From positions 1 through 64,000 of the IMG/VR virus record IMGVR_UViG_3300037692_000137: 64,000 nucleotides of DNA; one strand, 5' to 3'. Every line of letters starts with the position of its first letter. Within the stretch, counting starts at the first letter, position 1. Made by a program: the position numbers and the translations under genes. This stretch comes from a virus (lineage: Duplodnaviria > Caudoviricetes). The notes below the pieces were generated by a model, which searched no databases, was not told where the DNA came from, and saw only the letters and a list, made by a program, of their open reading frames with translations. Positions 33,807-46,777 of the stretch are shown in pieces.

Positions 33807-34466
33807 TTATTTAATTTTTCGTCCTCTAACCCAACCCAAATTTTCCAACGTGTTGAGATCTTCTTTATTTATAGATCTACTCTCATGCGTATAAGGGCAG
33901 TAAACCCACACAGTGCCATAACGAGAATTAAACTGCCCTGCTTGTCCTATTGAATTTTTTCTACCAATTGTGTGCTTGGTCTCTTGTGTGTGCTTCTTAC
34001 CATAAAAACTATTTTTAGCTCCTTTATGCTTACCGGTATGGGATTTACTCATTTTATTTTTATACTTTTCCCATCTGCCCGAAGCTATTAAAATTGTCTT
34101 TAATTTATTACCACACACTAAATTTTCTTGGCCATAACCTTTTTGGCCATTTTTACCATATAAATTTAATTTTAATTCATTTATAGCGGCAATGTTTTTA
34201 TAACCACCCTCAATTAAATTATATGTAAATGGGTTTTTAACAAAGTCTTTGTTTACTAAAATTTCTTCAAGTTCTGACATATCCTCATGGTTATCAAATA
34301 CAGCTAGGATATCTTTTGTAAAATTTTGTATACCATATTTTCGTTGAGCAGCTATAAGATGCCGCCCTGAACCCATATATGTGTCATCAATATGTGTAGT
34401 TCTATGACAACCTACATAAATTTTATTATTAATGGTGTTTGTTATTTTATATACAACATAAAACAT
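33807..34466 (-). mobile_element. free-standing GIY-YIG homing endonuclease (Seg-like, NUMOD3-type repeats)
   Basis: VVYKITN...KIYVG.H, YMGSG, YNL..GG and NSFYGKKHT.ETK. The start is reassigned to ATG 34466 because the longer ORF runs through a tRNA. Confidence 0.85.
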
Positions 34467-34525
34467 ATAATAATTCCTGACACTTAAATAAAAGATTATT
34501 GTATTTGTATAAACATAATAATAAG

Positions 34526-34611
34526 TGGAGCCTAGAGAGGGATTCGAACCCCCGATGTGTTTTACCACGACAGCTTACAAAACTGCTGCTATACCCCTTA
34601 GCGATCTAGGC
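34526..34611 (-). tRNA. tRNA-Thr(UGU) with an atypically long variable arm
   Basis: Acceptor GCCTAGA/TCTAGGC, loop TT-TGT-AA, 16-nt variable region, GGTTCGAAT, encoded CCA. Confidence 0.8.
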
Positions 34612-34639
34612 CTATATATATATTAAAGTTAGTTAAAGC

Positions 34640-34714
34640 TGGGAGCAGCGGCAGGACTCGAACCTGCATAACCAGGGATATGAGCCCTGTGAGAAGCCAT
34701 TTCTCAACGCTGCG
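34640..34714 (-). tRNA. initiator tRNA-fMet(CAU)
   Basis: Anticodon CAT, GGG/CCC in the anticodon stem, unpaired C1:U72, A11:U24, encoded CCA. C73 is atypical. Confidence 0.88.
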
Positions 34715-34725
34715 TCACATTTTTA

Positions 34726-35028
34726 TTAGCCGTTCCTCAAAAAGAACAAATGATTAAAAAATTCAAAATTTATTTTTTGAAGATACTCAGAGGGTGATTC
34801 AATGTCAAGACCCAGCTGGTCAGCTATTACCTGAGTCATTACTTCATCCTGTAAGTACTGCTGATTAAAATTGTAAAATTCATACAAGTCTTCATCAGAT
34901 AGACTCTCCATGTGTGCCTTCCATGCCCCTTGACAGGTAACACAGACATAAGCAGAGTTGTCGTTGTTATTAATACAATTAGGGTCTGAACATTCAGGGC
35001 GAAAATCTAAATAATCTGGTGCTATCAT
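34726..35028 (-). CDS. hypothetical protein with a Cys cluster
   Basis: CSDPNC...CVTC; GAGGA RBS. Confidence 0.65.
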   Translation of the reverse strand: MIAPDYLDFRPECSDPNCINNNDNSAYVCVTCQGAWKAHMESLSDEDLYEFYNFNQQYLQDEVMTQVIADQLGLDIESPSEYLQKINFEFFNHLFFLRNG

Positions 35029-35068
35029 GTGTTAGTCCTCGGTAAGGTTATGTTTAATGCTATTAAGC

Positions 35069-35323
35069 TTATTTACCATAAGTTAACATGTTTGGTAGTA
35101 TTTCATCGTTATTAGACATTGAAACCAGTTCATCTTCTAAAACCTGTGTCCAATATGGTTTACTTCGTAAATAAGATATAGCTGCTGCATAGTCACGCCC
35201 TACCCCCAATTCTTGTGCTACTTCTTGAACTCTACCACAAAATACTCTGTGGTTATTAACAGCTGCTGCGTCTAATGTTACCAAGGACTCATTTATCGTA
35301 GGCATACTTTTAAACTCCTTCAC
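35069..35323 (-). CDS. hypothetical protein
   Basis: ORF downstream of a sigma70 promoter. Confidence 0.65.
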   Translation of the reverse strand: MKEFKSMPTINESLVTLDAAAVNNHRVFCGRVQEVAQELGVGRDYAAAISYLRSKPYWTQVLEDELVSMSNNDEILPNMLTYGK

Positions 35324-35367
35324 TTAGTTTTTAATAATTCTTAGCCTTAATTACCAAACTGGTTAAT

Positions 35368-35396
35368 AGTATAACATACATTAACTGAGTTGTCAA
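35368..35396 (-). promoter_or_regulatory. sigma70-type promoter
   Basis: TTGACA, 17 nt, TATACT with a TG extended -10. Confidence 0.8.
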
Positions 35397-35399
35397 TAG

Positions 35400-35837
35400 C
35401 TACTTTATATTTAATTCAATGTCAATAGTGTTTAAATAAGATGTATACTCATCTAAACTATTTAAATTATTTAATAACTCATTATGCTTTTTACATTCTT
35501 TTATGTGTTTGTAAGTACCATCACAGCGGCAGGTTCTACCACATAGCTTACAATCGCAATAATCCACCGGATAATTACCTTCAATACCCCAGCTACCTCC
35601 GTTATAATATTCATATCTGGTTTCAGTATTTTCAAAAAGTAGCACGCGTAATCTTCTAAAAGCTACATTCTCAGGGTAATTATTAAATAGCTCATGTGAC
35701 CAGTGCGGGACTAACTCTTCTATAATAGCATTTTGTATATGGTCAGGTAAAGAGTCAAACATTTTTACTACTATATCTTTAAGCGTTGCTTGTGCAAACA
35801 ATGTTTCTTTTGTGGGTATAGCCATGATTAACCTCAA
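35400..35837 (-). CDS. hypothetical protein
   Basis: ORF with a CDCKLCG.TCRC cluster. Confidence 0.65.
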   Translation of the reverse strand: MRLIMAIPTKETLFAQATLKDIVVKMFDSLPDHIQNAIIEELVPHWSHELFNNYPENVAFRRLRVLLFENTETRYEYYNGGSWGIEGNYPVDYCDCKLCGRTCRCDGTYKHIKECKKHNELLNNLNSLDEYTSYLNTIDIELNIK

Positions 35838-35841
35838 GTGT

Positions 35842-36093
35842 TTAGTAATCTACTGTGTAGCTTTCAACAAATAATATGGACCTAATTGGTATTAACATAG
35901 TATCTACTTCTATAAAAGTATTATCATTATTATGATCCGCTATTACTTCTAATGGGTTACAATTTTGATTCCTGGATCTACCTGAATTACGTGAAATAGA
36001 TAAATAAGTACATGTAGTGCCTAGTAAATCTACTTTTAACCCATTAAGTAATACTAATCTATAAGCGTACATTCCATAACTCCTTATTATCAA
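35842..36093 (-). CDS. hypothetical protein
   Basis: ORF overlapping the upstream gene by 4 nt. Confidence 0.55.
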   Translation of the reverse strand: MIIRSYGMYAYRLVLLNGLKVDLLGTTCTYLSISRNSGRSRNQNCNPLEVIADHNNDNTFIEVDTMLIPIRSILFVESYTVDY

Positions 36094-36302
36094 ACTTTAA
36101 TTGGATCTGGCTCTTTTAAACCCCAACATTCTAATTCGTACTCATATAAATAGCCTATCACTTCTTCTGGCTCGTTAGGATGCTCTAATTTAATTTCTTC
36201 TAATGTTTTAGGACGGTATTCTCCAGGCTTATCCCCGTAAGCTTGTTTCATTAATGTCTCATCTCGTGCTTCACATAAACGCATAAACCAGTTTTTAATC
36301 AT
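36090..36302 (-). CDS. hypothetical protein
   Basis: ORF with a GAGG RBS. Confidence 0.6.
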   Translation of the reverse strand: MIKNWFMRLCEARDETLMKQAYGDKPGEYRPKTLEEIKLEHPNEPEEVIGYLYEYELECWGLKEPDPIKV

Positions 36303-36320
36303 ATTAGCCTCTTTAAATCA

Positions 36321-36410
36321 CCCCCTCCTCCAAAGTCTGCCGTAGTCACTCGACTTCGCTCTGATATGTAATCAGAACCGGGATGTTTATCCCGCTAAGG
36401 AGAAGGGTTA
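36321..36410 (-). ncRNA. unassigned multi-hairpin structured RNA directly 3' of tRNA-Tyr
   Basis: The closing stem CCCTTCTCC/GGAGGAGGG encloses CGGGAT/ATCCCG, TTCTGAT/ATCAGAG and AAGTC/GACTT helices. The wobbles are consistent with the - strand only. Confidence 0.5.
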
Positions 36411-36426
36411 AGTAAGGGGGTTGTTG

Positions 36427-36513
36427 TGGAGAGAGGAGGATTCGAACCTCCGGGTTCAGCACAACGGCGGTGGTTTTACAGACCACTCCCTTCAACCGCT
36501 CGGGCATCTCTCC
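36427..36513 (-). tRNA. tRNA-Tyr(GUA)
   Basis: Acceptor GGAGAGA/TCTCTCC, stem-loop GTGGT-CTGTAAA-ACCAC, long variable arm, A73; CCA not encoded. Confidence 0.93.
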
Positions 36514-36546
36514 ATTTTTATGTTTAGTAGCATAGCATAAAATTAC

Positions 36547-36834
36547 TTAGCCGTCAATAGTTTCTTTTAATATTAAAGTTTCTAATAATGGCGGCAATTG
36601 ATTAAAAGAATTTAAAACTACCTCCCCAGTAGCTACATTTTTTGTTTCTATATACGTAGAATACGTAGTACCTCTATTAGAGCCTGCGTGTTTAATTGGA
36701 ACAGAAAATGTTATTTTATCTCCAATTTTTAGATCTTTAAATAAACGGGCCTTAGTTTTACGTAGAATTTTTGCTACTACTAATATGTTGCTTTTTAATA
36801 GTATATCATTCATTTTATACTCCTTAATAAACAT
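36547..36834 (-). CDS. hypothetical protein
   Basis: ORF downstream of a sigma70 promoter. Confidence 0.65.
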   Translation of the reverse strand: MFIKEYKMNDILLKSNILVVAKILRKTKARLFKDLKIGDKITFSVPIKHAGSNRGTTYSTYIETKNVATGEVVLNSFNQLPPLLETLILKETIDG

Positions 36835-36861
36835 ATTACTTTATTGTGGTATATGTTTATT

Positions 36862-36890
36862 AGTATACCATACGCTGTAATCATTGTCAA
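36862..36890 (-). promoter_or_regulatory. sigma70-type promoter
   Basis: TTGACA, 17 nt, TATACT with a TG extended -10. Confidence 0.8.
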
Positions 36891-36891
36891 C

Positions 36892-37395
36892 CTAAAATCT
36901 TTTTGGTATTAAATTAGGGTTGTCCGGTCTATTAGCCATTATCTCCGTAAGCTTGGTAAAAGATACGGGATAAAAATTATTGTTATCTACACCAACATCC
37001 CAACTCTTACCAATAGGCGGTAGTTTGCCATGACTGTGCCCGTAAAGATTCCAACTATTATAGTGACTCGCATTCCATACTCGTAAACTATAATGAGAAC
37101 AAACTATCTTCTGTCCTTCAATAGTACGTTCCCAAATATCACCATAGAATTTATCCTTTTTATGGTCGTGATTACCGCGAAGAAAGACGTGGCTACCATT
37201 AAGTTGTCGCACATATTTCTCACGTGGCTGAAAGCTAAAATCACCGACGTGGATAACCACATCCCCATCCTTAACTACTTCATTGTGTCTACGTATAATT
37301 TCATCATTCATTTCTTGCACATCTTTGAAAGGCCTATTTAAGTACCTAATTATGTTACTATGCCCGTAGTGGCAGTCACCGCTAAAAAAATACAT
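36892..37395 (-). CDS. calcineurin-like metallophosphoesterase
   Basis: Motifs GDCHYGH, VGDFS, GNHD, SHY and GHSHG. Confidence 0.9.
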   Translation of the reverse strand: MYFFSGDCHYGHSNIIRYLNRPFKDVQEMNDEIIRRHNEVVKDGDVVIHVGDFSFQPREKYVRQLNGSHVFLRGNHDHKKDKFYGDIWERTIEGQKIVCSHYSLRVWNASHYNSWNLYGHSHGKLPPIGKSWDVGVDNNNFYPVSFTKLTEIMANRPDNPNLIPKRF

Positions 37396-37398
37396 AGC

Positions 37399-38034
37399 TT
37401 AATACCTCATCCATTGTTTCTTTTTTTTAGTACAATCTTTCCAACAAGTAGTATGAGAGTCACCTCTATGCATATCATCCCACGAGTTTGGTAAGTTCTT
37501 TACATTCCTACAAGCTCGCACATAGGGGTTACACCCACAACTTAGCCGGCGTTCTTGTGTTGTTTTGGGGCGCTTATAGTATTGATTAAAATGCCACCTT
37601 CTTTTTCTTGTATAAGGAACAGGCCCATTACGAAAACCTAACCATTCATACTCTTTAAACCTGTTACGTTTAGTATACTTTTTAGGCACATAATTGTCAA
37701 GATCTTTTTTTATTTTTTCTGTGTTTATTACCCTAAAATTAGCATCTAATAAGATAAGCTCTATCTTATCTTTGACATCTTTACCTAACCAACCACCAGG
37801 CTTCTCAGGAACAAAGTGGATGTAGGTGTCATTCCAGTTGTTGCCAATGTTTTGTGATAACACCGTAGCAATACTTTTTGGGCGAAAATATTCACGTAAT
37901 GTTTTTCTGTTAGGATCAAGCCATTGGCGTTTGCGGTATCTAGCTAATAAAAAGTCTGCGTAAGATTTGAACTCCTCATAGTTGTTATCCCTATCAACCA
38001 AATAAACTCTTACATCTTTATTAATTGTGTGCAT
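37399..38034 (-). CDS. basic hypothetical protein
   Basis: 211 aa Arg/Lys/Trp-rich ORF with a GGAG RBS. Confidence 0.7.
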   Translation of the reverse strand: MHTINKDVRVYLVDRDNNYEEFKSYADFLLARYRKRQWLDPNRKTLREYFRPKSIATVLSQNIGNNWNDTYIHFVPEKPGGWLGKDVKDKIELILLDANFRVINTEKIKKDLDNYVPKKYTKRNRFKEYEWLGFRNGPVPYTRKRRWHFNQYYKRPKTTQERRLSCGCNPYVRACRNVKNLPNSWDDMHRGDSHTTCWKDCTKKKKQWMRY

Positions 38035-38115
38035 TTAGACTCTCCTTTAAGTTAAAGTTAATAAACTTAAAGGATGTCTTGTACGTAATAGTATAGTATT
38101 TTATGTTTCATAATA

Positions 38116-38352
38116 TTAATCTGTCTCTAATAGTAAATTTGTATAGTAAACTAATTCTTTTTTTACTCCGGCCATATAACAACCCTTACCATGTCTACCA
38201 TCTATACTTATTTGTACATTTGTTTTGTCACACCCTTTACAAAAAGGATATGGATTAGGGGGTTTGGTGTACCATGAGTCATACAATTTACTTTCTAATT
38301 TACGCACCCTATCTTGTAGCCTCTCGCGTGTACTCATATGGTTGGCCTTCAT
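38116..38352 (-). CDS. hypothetical protein
   Basis: ORF with C..C and H...C; AAAGGAG RBS. Confidence 0.6.
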   Translation of the reverse strand: MKANHMSTRERLQDRVRKLESKLYDSWYTKPPNPYPFCKGCDKTNVQISIDGRHGKGCYMAGVKKELVYYTNLLLETD

Positions 38353-38407
38353 GTTAACTCCTTTAGCGCAGTTTATTTAACTCAAAGACAGTGTGCTTAT
38401 GAATCAA

Positions 38408-38493
38408 TGGCGGAGGAAGTAGGATTCGAACCCACGGAACTTTCGTTCAACGGTTTTCAAGACCGCCGCCTTCAACCACTCGGCCATTCCTCC
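38408..38493 (-). tRNA. tRNA-Ser(UGA)
   Basis: Acceptor GGAGGAA/TTCCTCC, loop CT-TGA-AA, long variable arm, G73, encoded CCA. Confidence 0.95.
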
Positions 38494-38500
38494 TGCTCAG

Positions 38501-38548
38501 TATAATATAGGCTACTAGAGTCTAACCCCTCTAGTAGCCTATATTATA
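38501..38548. repeat. perfect 20-bp inverted repeat
   Basis: TATAATATAGGCTACTAGAG, 8-nt loop, CTCTAGTAGCCTATATTATA, between the cytochrome gene and tRNA-Ser. Confidence 0.9.
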
Positions 38549-38575
38549 TACTTAATTACCTATTAACTTACATAA

Positions 38576-39370
38576 TTACTTTGTTGTATGGCATCTGGTA
38601 CAAGTGATATTACGTTTTGCATGTGTATCATGAAGTCCGCTATTCCAAGTTTTCCTACTGTGGCAGGTGCTACATAAGTTTTGCCACGGAGTCATAATAA
38701 AACCAGTAGGGTCAACGGTACCTGTATCCGGAGTAGGGGTAGTGCCTGTGTCCTCGTCAACTCCATCTTTTACTTCACCCGAGCCCACTTTAACGTGACA
38801 GTCCAAGCAGCCCTGATGTATAAGGTATTTCTCTTTCTTAAAACCAGGCGTTGCATGTGGATAATGACACATTTTACATGTTATAATATCCCCCTTTAGC
38901 AGTACAGCGATACCTCCTCCAGACACAATATCGTCACCACTCATTGGGTCTTTAACAAACCCCCCATTTCCGTCAGCTACTTTTCTACCATTAAATAAGA
39001 AGTCGTATTGAGCACAGATAAACTTGTCGAATGCAACCACCGAATCCTTCCCATTATGACAGCCTCTGCATACACCAACACCCTCACGCTTTACTCTCTC
39101 ACCATGATTTACTCCGTGTGCGTTGCCGGGTGATGGTAAAAACTCAGTAACAGTTGAACCTGAGTCTGGACATTCTGGACAAACGGGGTCCGGACATTCT
39201 GGACAAACTAGATCTTTGCATTCCTCGCACGGAGGACACTCCTTAACTTTCTTTTCTTGTTTATAAGACTCTCTATCGCGTTTATGCTCATCATCCTTAG
39301 CAATAGACGTACCCACCACCATAAAACTAAAACAGATTAAGATTGTTATGATACTTAACAATTTATTCAT
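38576..39370 (-). CDS. secreted multiheme (penta-heme) c-type cytochrome
   Basis: Sec signal peptide, five CxxCH motifs (CRGCH, CKMCH, CLDCH, CSTCH, CTRCH), extra His ligands, and a CPECPD repeat linker. Confidence 0.85.
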   Translation of the reverse strand: MNKLLSIITILICFSFMVVGTSIAKDDEHKRDRESYKQEKKVKECPPCEECKDLVCPECPDPVCPECPDSGSTVTEFLPSPGNAHGVNHGERVKREGVGVCRGCHNGKDSVVAFDKFICAQYDFLFNGRKVADGNGGFVKDPMSGDDIVSGGGIAVLLKGDIITCKMCHYPHATPGFKKEKYLIHQGCLDCHVKVGSGEVKDGVDEDTGTTPTPDTGTVDPTGFIMTPWQNLCSTCHSRKTWNSGLHDTHAKRNITCTRCHTTK

Positions 39371-39510
39371 GCGTTCCTCCTTTGTTTTGTAATTATTTAA
39401 ATAGAGTTTATGTTGTTCCTATCCATACCAACGGTTAGTTTGTTATGAATAAGCATTAAATCCTGCTTCTAACTATAGGTAGCTTACTTAAAACGTTAAG
39501 TTACAGGTTA

Positions 39511-39538
39511 AGTATAACACATTTAAAAATATTGTCAA
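39511..39538 (-). promoter_or_regulatory. sigma70-type promoter upstream of the cytochrome gene
   Basis: TTGACA, 16 nt, TATACT. Confidence 0.7.
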
Positions 39539-40482
39539 TTGCTTTTAAGCTTTTTAAGTAAAAATTGTCCACATGCTGCTTTTATCTCTGATCCAGTAGA
39601 CACCTGATATTTTAATTTATTAACACTTTTTGAAAGTGTATCTACTATAATATTAAATTTCTCCGACTCTTTAAAAGCAGAGCCCCCACAAGAATTAAAA
39701 CGTAAAATACGCAATTCCTTATTATGATTAATTGGACTAGTCATAAAAGTAATAAGCCCTTTAATCTCTTCTAAGTAGTCATTACGTAGGTGTAAAAAAA
39801 CCTGGTGATATATTATGTCTACACCAGCTAATGCTGAAAGAGTACTTAAATCAGCCACAGCATTTATTATAGGTACGGTACCAGGTATCAAATTATTACG
39901 TGTTTTTTGAAAAGTAGAATGTAATGAATAGAATAACCTAAAAGGGCTTCTACCATCAACGTGTTCTGGATTAACATCATACACTTTTAAAGCTGAGTTC
40001 AAGTCTATAAATTTATTAAAATAAATATTTTTTACATTAGGGTATACAGTAGATAAGTCTACTCCATCCAAACCTTTTGCATAACCATTAGCAAAAATCC
40101 AGTTAAGTACGTTTATAGAAACCTGGTATACAATATCCCCATGAGGTAAAGCGTCGCCCATACCCATCCAGGAAAATTTTATATACTTATCTTTAAGTTC
40201 AGGTTTATGTGCTACTTCTGCCGTTATTGCATCTTTAACATTTTGCTCTATTTGTTTAGCAGTTAATTTTGTATAACCACATTTCTTTAATGTTAGGTAA
40301 CAAAAAGCACAATTCATAGCACACCCTGCTGATATAGAAACAAACACAGAGTACTTATTCCTAGCTGTTGCTGTTACACCAACTATGTTATTACAAGAAC
40401 TTACGGTTTTTATAGCGGTTTCTGAGCCGTCGTTATGTATGTACTTAGTCACTTGATTGTCCTTTGTTCTATAAACTTCCAT
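39535..40482 (-). CDS. RlmN/Cfr-like radical SAM enzyme, N-terminally shortened, lacking the C118-equivalent
   Basis: GCAMNCAFC, MGMGD, LST, SLHS, ND, FN and G.EIKAACGQ match the RlmN layout. FVSISAGC aligns with RlmN CVSSQVGC. Confidence 0.82.
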   Translation of the reverse strand: MEVYRTKDNQVTKYIHNDGSETAIKTVSSCNNIVGVTATARNKYSVFVSISAGCAMNCAFCYLTLKKCGYTKLTAKQIEQNVKDAITAEVAHKPELKDKYIKFSWMGMGDALPHGDIVYQVSINVLNWIFANGYAKGLDGVDLSTVYPNVKNIYFNKFIDLNSALKVYDVNPEHVDGRSPFRLFYSLHSTFQKTRNNLIPGTVPIINAVADLSTLSALAGVDIIYHQVFLHLRNDYLEEIKGLITFMTSPINHNKELRILRFNSCGGSAFKESEKFNIIVDTLSKSVNKLKYQVSTGSEIKAACGQFLLKKLKSN

Positions 40483-40609
40483 AAGTAAACACCCCCGCCC
40501 TAACTATGGTTATTAATAAAAAAACGGCAGAGAAAAGTGGCTAAACTATTTTTTGATTTCTGATTAATAGTCAGAATGAAGTAAGTATAGCCTACACTAC
40601 TGTCGTTTG

Positions 40610-40684
40610 CGCTGTGTACAGGATTCGAACCTGCGAGTTGCCGACTAGAAAGGCCGGTGTCTTAAACCACTTGACTAACACAGC
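40610..40684 (-). tRNA. tRNA-Glu(UUC) with U at position 37
   Basis: Acceptor GCTGTGT/ACACAGC, stem-loop CCGGC-CTTTCTA-GTCGG, GGTTCGAAT, G73; CCA not encoded. Confidence 0.88.
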
Positions 40685-41277: not shown

Positions 41278-41847
41278 TTATCCCTTTAAAATTAACTCTT
41301 TTGCATATTCAAAGTGTTTTAATACATCTTTGAATTTGGGGCTCTTTTCTCCACCTGTTCTTAACAGATATGACGGGTGATACGTGGGTACAGCATAAAT
41401 ACCTTTGGCATACTCGTACAAGCACCCCTGCATTGAACTTAAGGTTTGCTTTGCATCTAAATTTAGCATAGTGCCAGCAGCATCTTTACCAAGAAGCAAT
41501 ATTACTTTTGGCTTAAGTATGTTTACCTGCATTATTATATATGGTAAACAAGCATCTATCCAGTCCTTTTGTAGTGGCTGGCCAGCAGCCAAGTAGCACT
41601 TAACTAAATTAGTGATGTATACATCTTCATAAGTTAAAGATGTTCTAGCTAAAATTACATCAAGTAGTTTACCGGCTCTACCAACAAAAGGTATACCGAC
41701 TTTGTTCTCTTCGTCTGCTGGCACCATACCACATATAAGCAGTTTAGCAGTAGGATTTCCTTTATCAAAGACGGGAAGCAAGCGCCCTTCATGTAGTGAA
41801 CAAGCAGTACATTCCGCTGCCATATAGTATAAGGTAATTAAATCCAT
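41278..41847 (-). CDS. uracil-DNA glycosylase, family 4-like (Fe-S)
   Basis: C..C.L, G.P.A, PFVGRAGKLL, YITNLVKC, C..Y and YHPSYLLR. Motif A is GMVP rather than GEAP. Confidence 0.88.
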   Translation of the reverse strand: MDLITLYYMAAECTACSLHEGRLLPVFDKGNPTAKLLICGMVPADEENKVGIPFVGRAGKLLDVILARTSLTYEDVYITNLVKCYLAAGQPLQKDWIDACLPYIIMQVNILKPKVILLLGKDAAGTMLNLDAKQTLSSMQGCLYEYAKGIYAVPTYHPSYLLRTGGEKSPKFKDVLKHFEYAKELILKG

Positions 41848-44877: not shown

Positions 44878-45753
44878 TTATTTTTTATTTTCCATAAAGT
44901 CATAAACTCTAATAGAAACGGTACTATTATCAAACAGATATTGTGCCATATCGTCATACTGCTGTAAACTTGAAACTATAACCTCTTGAATACCAGAGTT
45001 TATAATTTTAATAGCGCACTTACTACAAGGGGTACCACACGTAAGGTAAAGAGAGGCGTCTTTTGTGGCTATACCCATACGGGCGCAATTAACTATGGCA
45101 GATTCTTCTGCGTGGCTAGCGGGACAAAGCTCCATACCCTCACCAGATCTATACCCAAGCACTTTTCTGGGGCATTTACCTACCAAGTATTTAAAATTAC
45201 GCTCGGGGCGGGTATTCAATGACTTGTCTAATAGCCATCTATGGTCGCAAGTAGGCACCCCTCTTGGGGGACTGTTGTAACCAGTGCCTAAAATACTATT
45301 ATCTCTTACTAATACAGCGCCAATTCTTCTAGAAAAGCATTTAGAGTTTCTAGCCGCTTGGGCAGCAACACCGTAAAAATACTCATCCCAGCTTTTAACA
45401 GGGTCTTCAATAGATAGTGAGTAATTACAAGTAGACTCTGTAGGCTCTTTCTTAAATTCACCACAGTGGGTTAACCATTTATGAACTAGGGCTACCACAC
45501 CTGAGTCATCTATACATTTACGCGCAACAGAGGAATCTAACATGTCTAAAAAAGCGTTATAAGAGTAACCAAGGGTGTACGAAACACTTATAACGTTGTA
45601 TATTTGTACAACTTCAGAGGCAACGACAGTGTCGGAATTTGCATGTAGTTCAATATTTTCATAAGCCTCTTGCGCTTTTTTAAGATTATTACCGAAATTA
45701 ATTTTAGCTGCTTTTCTAAAATCAGCGTCATTTAAATTAGACATATTATTCAT
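44878..45753 (-). CDS. dCMP deaminase with an N-terminal extension
   Basis: SWDEYF..VA...A.NSKC.SR.IGAV, GYN, HAEESAI and PCSKC. Confidence 0.92.
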   Translation of the reverse strand: MNNMSNLNDADFRKAAKINFGNNLKKAQEAYENIELHANSDTVVASEVVQIYNVISVSYTLGYSYNAFLDMLDSSVARKCIDDSGVVALVHKWLTHCGEFKKEPTESTCNYSLSIEDPVKSWDEYFYGVAAQAARNSKCFSRRIGAVLVRDNSILGTGYNSPPRGVPTCDHRWLLDKSLNTRPERNFKYLVGKCPRKVLGYRSGEGMELCPASHAEESAIVNCARMGIATKDASLYLTCGTPCSKCAIKIINSGIQEVIVSSLQQYDDMAQYLFDNSTVSIRVYDFMENKK

Positions 45754-46012: not shown

Positions 46013-46777
46013 TTACTTTAAGTGTGCCTTTACTACTTCCATAACAATGGCTTCAGCTTTAGTATAATCAGGTTTAAGAGGAAGTTTGTTATGTTTAAAA
46101 CTTTCTTCTGTTTTTTTAAATAACCTTTCCGCCTCATTTTTAACCTGTGTCAATGACCATTGGCCAAGCTTTATTTCAAGAAGCTCTTTGGCGTCCTCTC
46201 TATAAACGTTTAGTTCACCAGAGTTAAGATACTCATCGCCCATTCTTAGTAAGCGAATACAGTGAGCAGCATTTTTAGGGTCATAACCATACTTTTTTAC
46301 CAGCTCTTTTCTTTTGGCACCCATATAACCTGATTTAGTATCGCTTTCCATGTGCTTAAGCTGACCAAAAGCATAGCCATTAAAAGCTTGGAAGGCCAGC
46401 TGAGAAATAAAAATATCTCTGTTGTCTATTAATAGCTGACCGGCCTCTGTTTTACTTAAATAGTGCTCATCCTTTAACCAGAGCATCCCCAAAACGTTAG
46501 GATTGGATTTTAATAACAGCCTAACAAATTTTCTAAATTCGTAGGATACTACGTCATACTTACCTATAAAATGTTCTATGGCCCGTTCATGTTTACGTTC
46601 TAACCCTAAACCTATATAGTACTCTTTGGGGGCCAGATAGACTCCCATCAAGTCTATATCATCTATAGAGTTTGGATCTGTATTAGGTACATACATATTA
46701 TGGGCTATTGACCCTCTGTATGCTATTAATACAGCGTTGGCAGGAAACAACTCTTTATGTAATTCTGGTGTTAACAT
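46013..46777 (-). CDS. DNA polymerase beta-like nucleotidyltransferase (RlaP/YcgL-type)
   Basis: GS.AH........D.DL.GV, YE.RKF..LL.KSNPN.L..L, GYA..QL and YDPKNAAHCIRLL..G. Confidence 0.85.
   Translation of the reverse strand: MLTPELHKELFPANAVLIAYRGSIAHNMYVPNTDPNSIDDIDLMGVYLAPKEYYIGLGLERKHERAIEHFIGKYDVVSYEFRKFVRLLLKSNPNVLGMLWLKDEHYLSKTEAGQLLIDNRDIFISQLAFQAFNGYAFGQLKHMESDTKSGYMGAKRKELVKKYGYDPKNAAHCIRLLRMGDEYLNSGELNVYREDAKELLEIKLGQWSLTQVKNEAERLFKKTEESFKHNKLPLKPDYTKAEAIVMEVVKAHLK

Follow-up and report, generated by a model that had tools for sequence, protein, structure and literature searches.

An open reading frame of a large phage (39535-40482, minus strand; all window coordinates given below refer to this strand) encodes a protein of 315 aa, P0001, which is, judged by its sequence, an RlmN/Cfr-like class A radical SAM protein with Phe in place of one of the two catalytic cysteines. 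The window analysed here comprises the first 64 kb (64,000 nucleotides) of a 234,228-bp IMG/VR phage record, which is 89% complete and derives from sediment. A pair of conserved cysteines is the defining feature of class A radical SAM methylases; the one lost here, C118 in RlmN and C105 in Cfr, is situated on β1, seven residues ahead of the cluster motif, and is regarded as indispensable. P0001 belongs to a viral family of several hundred proteins that is under purifying selection and has lost the canonical C118/C105 residue. Altogether, a functional RNA methylase that represents a new variant is more likely than a suicide RNA trap. Because a second Cys or His is found at alternative sites, the family constitutes a natural experiment on which residue deprotonates the protein-RNA adduct, and from where.

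The P0001 gene and its surroundings

The P0001 translation is free of stops, and the intact reading frame is preceded by a G-rich ribosome-binding site. The protein is composed of a beta-prime extension, the radical SAM core and a C-terminal Cys loop, and has no HhH2 domain. C54, C58 and C61 of the CxxxCxxC motif (40300..40323) are the ligands of the radical SAM [4Fe-4S] cluster, and Phe47 (40342..40344) aligns with RlmN C118 and Cfr C105. In the motif SWMGMGDA (residues 104-111; 40150..40173), S104 corresponds to Cfr Ser153 and M106 to RlmN M176, and D110 stands for the Glu of the GGE-type SAM motif. The methyl-carrier Cys, C304 (RlmN C355, Cfr C338), lies in AACGQ (residues 302-306; 39565..39579). 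Two further residues are candidates for the missing function: His226 (39805..39807), at the position of RlmN Glu278 and Cfr Ala254, as a general base, and Cys265 (39688..39690), in the loop after β6 at the position of RlmN Phe314 and Cfr Thr295, as a relocated second Cys.

All five tRNA genes of the phage are located within 34526-40684, thus the P0001 gene lies inside its only tRNA region. A tRNA-Glu(UUC) gene with U37 (40609..40684) is found 126 nt upstream of the P0001 ATG on the same strand, and a tRNA-Ser(UGA) gene (38408..38493) about 1 kb downstream of the P0001 gene. The genes around P0001 are typical early or nucleotide-metabolism genes of phages, among them those for an RlaP-type RNA-repair nucleotidyltransferase (46013-46777), a dCMP deaminase-like protein with an N-terminal extension (44878-45753), a family-4-type UDG (41278-41847) and a metallophosphoesterase. 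The ORF of a GIY-YIG/NUMOD3 homing endonuclease (33807-34568) overlaps the end of the tRNA-Thr gene. Directly downstream of P0001, at 38576-39370, a signal-peptide protein with five CxxCH haem-binding motifs is encoded (Paired_CXXCH_1, cytochrome c7-like); all five closest phage contigs have kept this five-haem cytochrome c gene.

Similarity to RlmN and Cfr

The only Pfam match of P0001 was Radical_SAM, below threshold. The NCBIfam model of RlmN (TIGR00048) matched with E 1.2e-13 and 50.7 bits, not reaching its curated cut-off of 290 bits, and the Cfr models gave 43-45 bits against cut-offs of 468-550. In PHROGs, P0001 matches phrog_27142 (E 4.6e-11; residues 41-308 on positions 39-299 of the 300 in the profile). 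A family profile of 57 sequences compared with E. coli RlmN by hhalign gave a probability of 98.3 and E 1.2e-14, and a profile of 63 sequences searched against the PDB retrieved RlmN with E 5e-24 and Cfr with E 1.4e-22.

The AF2 model of P0001 (pLDDT 89.2, pTM 0.89) is uncertain only at residues 34-38 and in the C304 loop. It has an RlmN-like fold consisting of a partial TIM barrel, the beta-prime extension and a C-terminal tail. According to this model, C304 is on a low-confidence and presumably mobile C-terminal loop, as C355 is in RlmN. When the model was compared with the PDB by Foldseek, RlmN and Cfr ranked at the top (6FZ6, E 2.2e-13; TM 0.65-0.68 for RlmN; E 1.8e-8 for Cfr). RlmN-like clusters were likewise at the top in AFDB, and in BFVD two phage 'COG0820' proteins, one of which is 201phi2-1 gp434.

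Residues were mapped by three independent alignments, HMMER against the PDB chains of RlmN, hhalign, and MAFFT with E. coli RlmN. All three agree that F47 corresponds to C118, C54/C58/C61 to C125/C129/C132, and C304 to C355. The description in the earlier note, which had been made from the sequence by eye, of an intact CxxxCxxC cluster and AACGQ loop with Phe at the C118 position is thereby confirmed. Its reading of MGMGEP as having become MGMGDA likewise agrees with the alignment (residues 106-111), and so does its observation that the N-terminal domain is missing. The alignment of P0001 to RlmN starts only at about E. coli residue 70-89, with the beta-prime extension kept, and family members share the start Met of P0001. 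Since the alignment starts this late and the tRNA gene lies only 126 nt upstream, the absence of HhH2 is real and no annotation artefact. A separately encoded HhH2 domain was not found at the family loci, as judged from the neighbour clusters of 45 lineages. Docking of the tRNA acceptor arm or of H91/H92 is the role of the missing N-terminal domain.

The best structural and profile match to P0001 is E. coli RlmN (PDB 3RFA, 5HR7), the methyl synthase for 23S rRNA m2A2503 and tRNA m2A37. Both proteins have the radical SAM core with beta-prime extension, CxxxCxxC, MGMG(E/D), the M176 equivalent and the AACGQ loop; P0001 differs by an identity of only about 20%, by the lack of the HhH2 domain and by the replacement of C118 by Phe, R206 by Asp, E278 by His, N307 by Arg and F314 by Cys. 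Cfr (PDB 9P0P, and a cryo-EM structure of the C105A-rRNA adduct), the methyl synthase for 23S rRNA m8A2503, has the same fold, and the two-SAM logic of Cfr is also assigned to P0001. Positions were related to Cfr numbering by a HMMER alignment and contacts were taken from the Cfr-rRNA cryo-EM preprint. [quoted passage not shown] As P0001 lacks C118 and the N-terminal domain and scores under the family cut-off, it is to be considered a new variant within the class A radical SAM methylases and not RlmN. An auxiliary Fe-S cluster was considered and rejected: besides CxxxCxxC only C265 and C304 are consistently conserved, too few to act as ligands.

Loss of C118 and candidate replacement residues

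The distribution of cysteines was analysed in a family alignment of 108 sequences, 107 cluster representatives and the protein of a Klebsiella phage. At position 47, Phe is found in 77 sequences, Val in 15, Ile in 4, Met in 3 and Leu in 2, and Cys in two basal members only. In the 120 closest homologues Phe47, the three cluster cysteines and C304 are invariant, and Cys never occurs at position 47. CxxxCxxC is invariant across the family, and C304 is present in 107 of the 108 representatives. Thus the loss of the canonical resolving Cys is a property of the family.

Other positions repeatedly carry Cys. Position 265 is Cys in 62 and His in 11 of the 108 sequences, and Cys in 115 of the 120 close homologues (96%); Cys is also found at position 104 in 45 sequences and at position 50 in 16. 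Taken together, 100 of 108 members (93%) have Cys104 or Cys/His265, and 8 have neither. The Cys in SSCNN (C30), which had been suggested earlier as a possible stand-in for C118, did not prove a suitable replacement, as it is kept in only 58/108 (~54%) and maps to an outer beta-prime strand. His226 is present in 104/108 members.

With E. coli RlmN as the root, the two Cys47 members branch off at the base of the family tree; both are truncated, are encoded on phage-like contigs, and lack C104 as well as C265. The remaining tree consists of two clades, one combining Cys104 with a small aliphatic residue at position 47 (Val/Ile/Met47) and including the Klebsiella phage protein, the other combining Cys265 or His265 with Phe47 and including P0001. 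Few evolutionary events underlie the complementarity of Cys47 with C104/C265. As the basal members have H226 together with Cys47, H226 did not arise as a replacement.

Position 104 is Cfr Ser153, on the strand adjoining C105, and a thiol there would sit at the target nucleotide, as Cfr Ser153 hydrogen-bonds the 2'-OH of the target. C265 maps five residues past the end of β6, to Cfr Thr295 and RlmN Phe314, and may plausibly lie at the active-site rim; Thr295 is not described as an active-site residue in the Cfr-rRNA preprint. The alternation of Cys and His at position 265 is as expected of an acid-base residue. His226 is on the same face of β5 as Cfr Tyr252.

The P0001 gene is under strong purifying selection: in comparison with an orthologue of 84% identity, dN was 0.084, dS 0.816 and dN/dS 0.10.

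A more distant group of truncated RlmN-like proteins of about 300 aa, annotated as 'Fe-S-cluster redox domain' in phrog_27142, occurs in phiKZ-like and in Caulobacter/Brevundimonas jumbo phages (e.g. 201phi2-1 gp434), in many cases with tRNA or RNA-repair genes close by. These proteins are 21-26% identical to P0001 and form a separate clade. Like P0001, they keep the C355 and His226 equivalents (His226 in all four phiKZ-like clade proteins examined) and have no Cys at the C118 position; unlike P0001, they have Tyr there, neither Cys104 nor Cys265, and keep NP(P/F/Y) after β6.

tRNA genes at family loci

The family gene occurs in tRNA-rich large phages. tRNA genes were found within 5 kb of it in 11/31 lineages, with at least three tRNA genes in 7 lineages, and all five tested genomes without nearby tRNAs carry arrays of 5-67 tRNAs elsewhere. 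Depending on the background fraction assumed (15-25%), the binomial p for this proximity ranges from 0.004 to 0.13. The enrichment of the family gene near tRNA genes is therefore modest, and a strong linkage to tRNA arrays was rejected in view of the 11/31 lineages and the five genomes with arrays elsewhere. A conserved partner gene was likewise rejected, as each cluster of neighbouring proteins is shared by at most 3 of 45 lineages. Among cultured phages, distant relatives adjoin tRNAs and RtcB in Pseudomonas phage D6, and a 6.8-kb segment of Caulobacter phage CcrPW holds both a distant relative and a tRNA nucleotidyltransferase gene.

The tRNA-Glu(UUC) gene at 40609-40684 has U37 in the loop CUUUCUA and a good cloverleaf, and is conserved in the orthologous phages. 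A tRNA-Glu of unrelated sequence with the same loop is encoded near another family member (L039). In the family loci a pyrimidine at position 37 was found in 5/36 tRNAs of the E. coli RlmN substrate classes vs 1/166 others (Fisher p 7e-4), and among other tRNAs in loci L113-L232 position 37 is A or G in 643/660 (~98%). When IMG/VR was scanned with a pattern combining the CUUUCUA loop and a T-loop, at least 50 distinct U37 tRNA-Glu(UUC) and at least 15 distinct U37 tRNA-Asp(GUC), the latter often alongside U37 tRNA-Glu, were detected with no family gene in the flanks; only 1/10 whole records with U37 tRNAs holds even a distant family member. A self-immunity pair of enzyme and U37 tRNA-Glu was thus rejected, since such a tRNA is common in phages without a P0001-type gene. 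The occurrence of U37 in tRNA-Glu and tRNA-Asp of phages seems to be a peculiarity of these tRNA classes that is widespread and unconnected with the RlmN-like gene.

Several family loci contain further unusual RNA genes. tRNA(CUA) genes of the amber-suppressor type (tRNA-Pyl by ARAGORN) are located at L010:16299-16374 and, in L039, downstream of the family gene at a distance of about 300 nt; stop codons may be reassigned in those phages. A tmRNA-like gene is found at L010:10534-10929, inside the phage tRNA array in which the family member is embedded.

Proposed reaction and substrate

The reading we prefer, to which we assign about an even chance, is that this phage protein would be a catalytic enzyme of the RlmN/Cfr type, an RNA-adenine C-methylase with a relocated general base. 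Its substrate would be an adenosine in an RNA (tRNA or rRNA), which would become C-methylated at C2 or C8. A first SAM would methylate C304, as in RlmN and Cfr; a second would be cleaved to give the 5'-dA radical, which would abstract H from methyl-C304, and the methylene radical so formed would add to an sp2 carbon of the base, resulting in a protein-RNA adduct. Release of the product in RlmN follows deprotonation of that carbon by the C118 thiolate; C118, which points at C2, serves as a general base, not necessarily via a disulfide, and RlmN C118A as well as Cfr C105A remain cross-linked to RNA (PMC9692996; preprint 10.64898/2026.02.27.707579). Phe47 cannot take this role. The base is proposed to have moved to Cys265 in the clade of P0001, to Cys104 in the sister clade, or to His226, so that turnover would be kept. 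Against this reading, C265 and C104 are each missing from part of the family, and proteins of the phiKZ-like clade have Tyr47 without an extra Cys.

In Cfr, Ser153 hydrogen-bonds the 2'-OH of the target A2503, S103 contacts the ribose 3'-O and the next phosphate, N288 contacts the target phosphate and Tyr252 stacks on the nucleotide beside the target, and in both RlmN and Cfr backbone atoms of the C-terminal tail read N1 and N6 of the adenine (10.64898/2026.02.27.707579). The target-nucleotide contacts S45 (Cfr S103) and S104 (Cfr S153) are kept in P0001, R258 is found at Cfr N288, and the G297-x6-C304 tail has the length and the [D/E]-[I/V]-x-A-A-C-G motif of RlmN and Cfr (G331-C338 in the latter). 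The kept target-nucleotide contacts therefore argue for adenosine in a polynucleotide as the substrate.

Other parts of the binding surface have changed. RlmN R206, which binds G29 of tRNA (PMC5130265), is replaced in the family by an invariant Asp139, a reversal of charge at a tRNA contact, and family-specific invariant charged or polar residues are D142, R182, R261, E272, K291 and Q293. The loss of HhH2 together with the change from R206 to Asp139 points to an RNA target or binding mode different from that of RlmN. As Asp139 and Asp142 replace RNA-touching residues of RlmN, the substrate may even not be an RNA of known type.

Alternative readings

The radical SAM scaffold and C304 could instead have been reused for a reaction beyond the adenine C2/C8 methylation of tRNA or rRNA, e.g. 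the methylation of another base, of DNA or of a nucleotide, a methylene or other adduct that is resolved differently, or a role of C304 as H-atom donor or thiyl radical, cf. spore photoproduct lyase. We consider this the main rival, though a rather unlikely one. The invariant polar residues of the barrel (D139, D142, R182, H226, R258, R261, E272, K291 and Q293) would suit it, as would the missing RNA-docking HhH2 domain with Asp at RlmN R206, scores far under the family cut-offs of RlmN and Cfr, and the phiKZ-like sister clade, which has Tyr47 and no spare Cys. However, the ribose- and phosphate-binding serines and the geometry of the adenine-reading tail of Cfr/RlmN are conserved, the AACGQ loop is invariant, and 93% of members have a second Cys/His, as expected for chemistry of the RlmN type. 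In a natural covalent RNA trap, by comparison, the resolving base would be missing altogether and a C304-CH2-adenine cross-link to host tRNA or rRNA would block translation stoichiometrically. Phe at the C118 position and the persistent cross-links of RlmN C118A and Cfr C105A (PMC9692996; 10.64898/2026.02.27.707579) are what such a trap would build on, and the adjacent phage tRNA-Glu(UUC), having U37, could not be attacked. Yet the trap would need one protein per target RNA and two SAM each, compensating Cys/His are present in 100/108 members including C265 in P0001, and phage tRNAs of the RlmN substrate classes beside family genes mostly keep A37. The tRNA argument is further weakened by the at least 50 distinct phage U37 tRNA-Glu without a family gene in their flanks and by the finding that just one among 10 whole U37-tRNA records holds a family member. 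The protein has no match to known defence or toxin models; of the PADLOC models, none matched P0001 or its homologue on contig L026 (see below). We therefore regard the trap as quite improbable.

The earlier note had inferred directly from the absence of C118 that the protein is a covalent trap or performs new chemistry. Part of this holds: the canonical resolving Cys is absent, the carrier Cys is kept and the recognition surface has changed. The step itself is weakened because the loss of C118 is family-wide and old with a dN/dS of 0.10, because 100/108 members have Cys104 or Cys/His265 and the Cys47 members have neither, because P0001 itself has C265 (96% in close relatives) and His226, and because U37 tRNA-Glu is common in phages without the family gene. 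Taken as one statement, that proteins of the family naturally cross-link RNA in a single turnover or carry out a new radical reaction resolving the methyl-C304 chemistry without an RlmN-type base, the proposal is unlikely; if it were true, phages would disable or re-mark adenines of host tRNA or rRNA during takeover. The loss of one catalytic Cys and one domain could also be taken as a sign that an acquired rlmN gene is decaying or survives as a non-catalytic relic, but dN/dS is 0.10, more than 400 homologues have invariant cluster cysteines, SAM motif and C304, and the ORF is intact with a G-rich ribosome-binding site. Such a relic is hardly credible.

Distribution of the family

A word-indexed search yielded 461 relatives of P0001; when 1.84 billion cluster representatives were searched exhaustively with HMMER, 407 had E <= 1e-3, including 105 with E <= 1e-30. 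Scans for family loci found 22 in viral contigs and 118 in metagenome contigs. The family is found almost only on phage contigs; a cellular origin was rejected, since one-genome-per-species prokaryote data covering 185,579 species contained 2 family loci only, both on MAG contigs with phage-like content. Close to the first of these a NinX-like phage gene, tRNAs and a Shango system are located, and close to the second a T4-type RNA ligase and a PRPP synthetase. No paper describing this viral family was found in the searchable literature, and its members thus represent a previously undescribed candidate RNA-modifying enzyme of large phages, encoded beside their tRNAs and RNA-repair genes.

One cultured phage carries a clear member and thereby makes the family experimentally tractable. 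Gene_104 of Klebsiella phage 05F01, annotated as 'radical SAM protein' (BBK09218.1), belongs to the same family (36% identity over 96% length, E 2e-58). Unlike P0001, it falls into the Val47 clade with Cys104/Cys50, has Gly at position 265, and adjoins genes for anaerobic NrdD/NrdG and an ADP-ribosyltransferase and not tRNAs.

On the Agitococcus MAG contig JAUSLJ010000022.1 (L026), a complete-looking Shango system (SngA, SngB, SngC; L026:11945-16998) lies 3 kb downstream of the family member; the region also contains a P22 NinX-like gene and three tRNAs, among them a tRNA-Asp(GUC) with C37. Some family members are located on contigs of 1.1-1.5 Mb, such as L040 (Ga0265780_10000003, 1.12 Mb) and L044 (Ga0308158_10000004, 1.46 Mb), a size that to our knowledge exceeds known phage genomes. 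Neighbours on contigs of this type include an actin-like ALP protein and a DFP flavoprotein, and at L028, a locus on an 810-kb contig with the same family protein as L040, SRP54 and PTH2 are among the neighbours. The contigs L040 and L044 could be derived from very large phages or from cells with small genomes.
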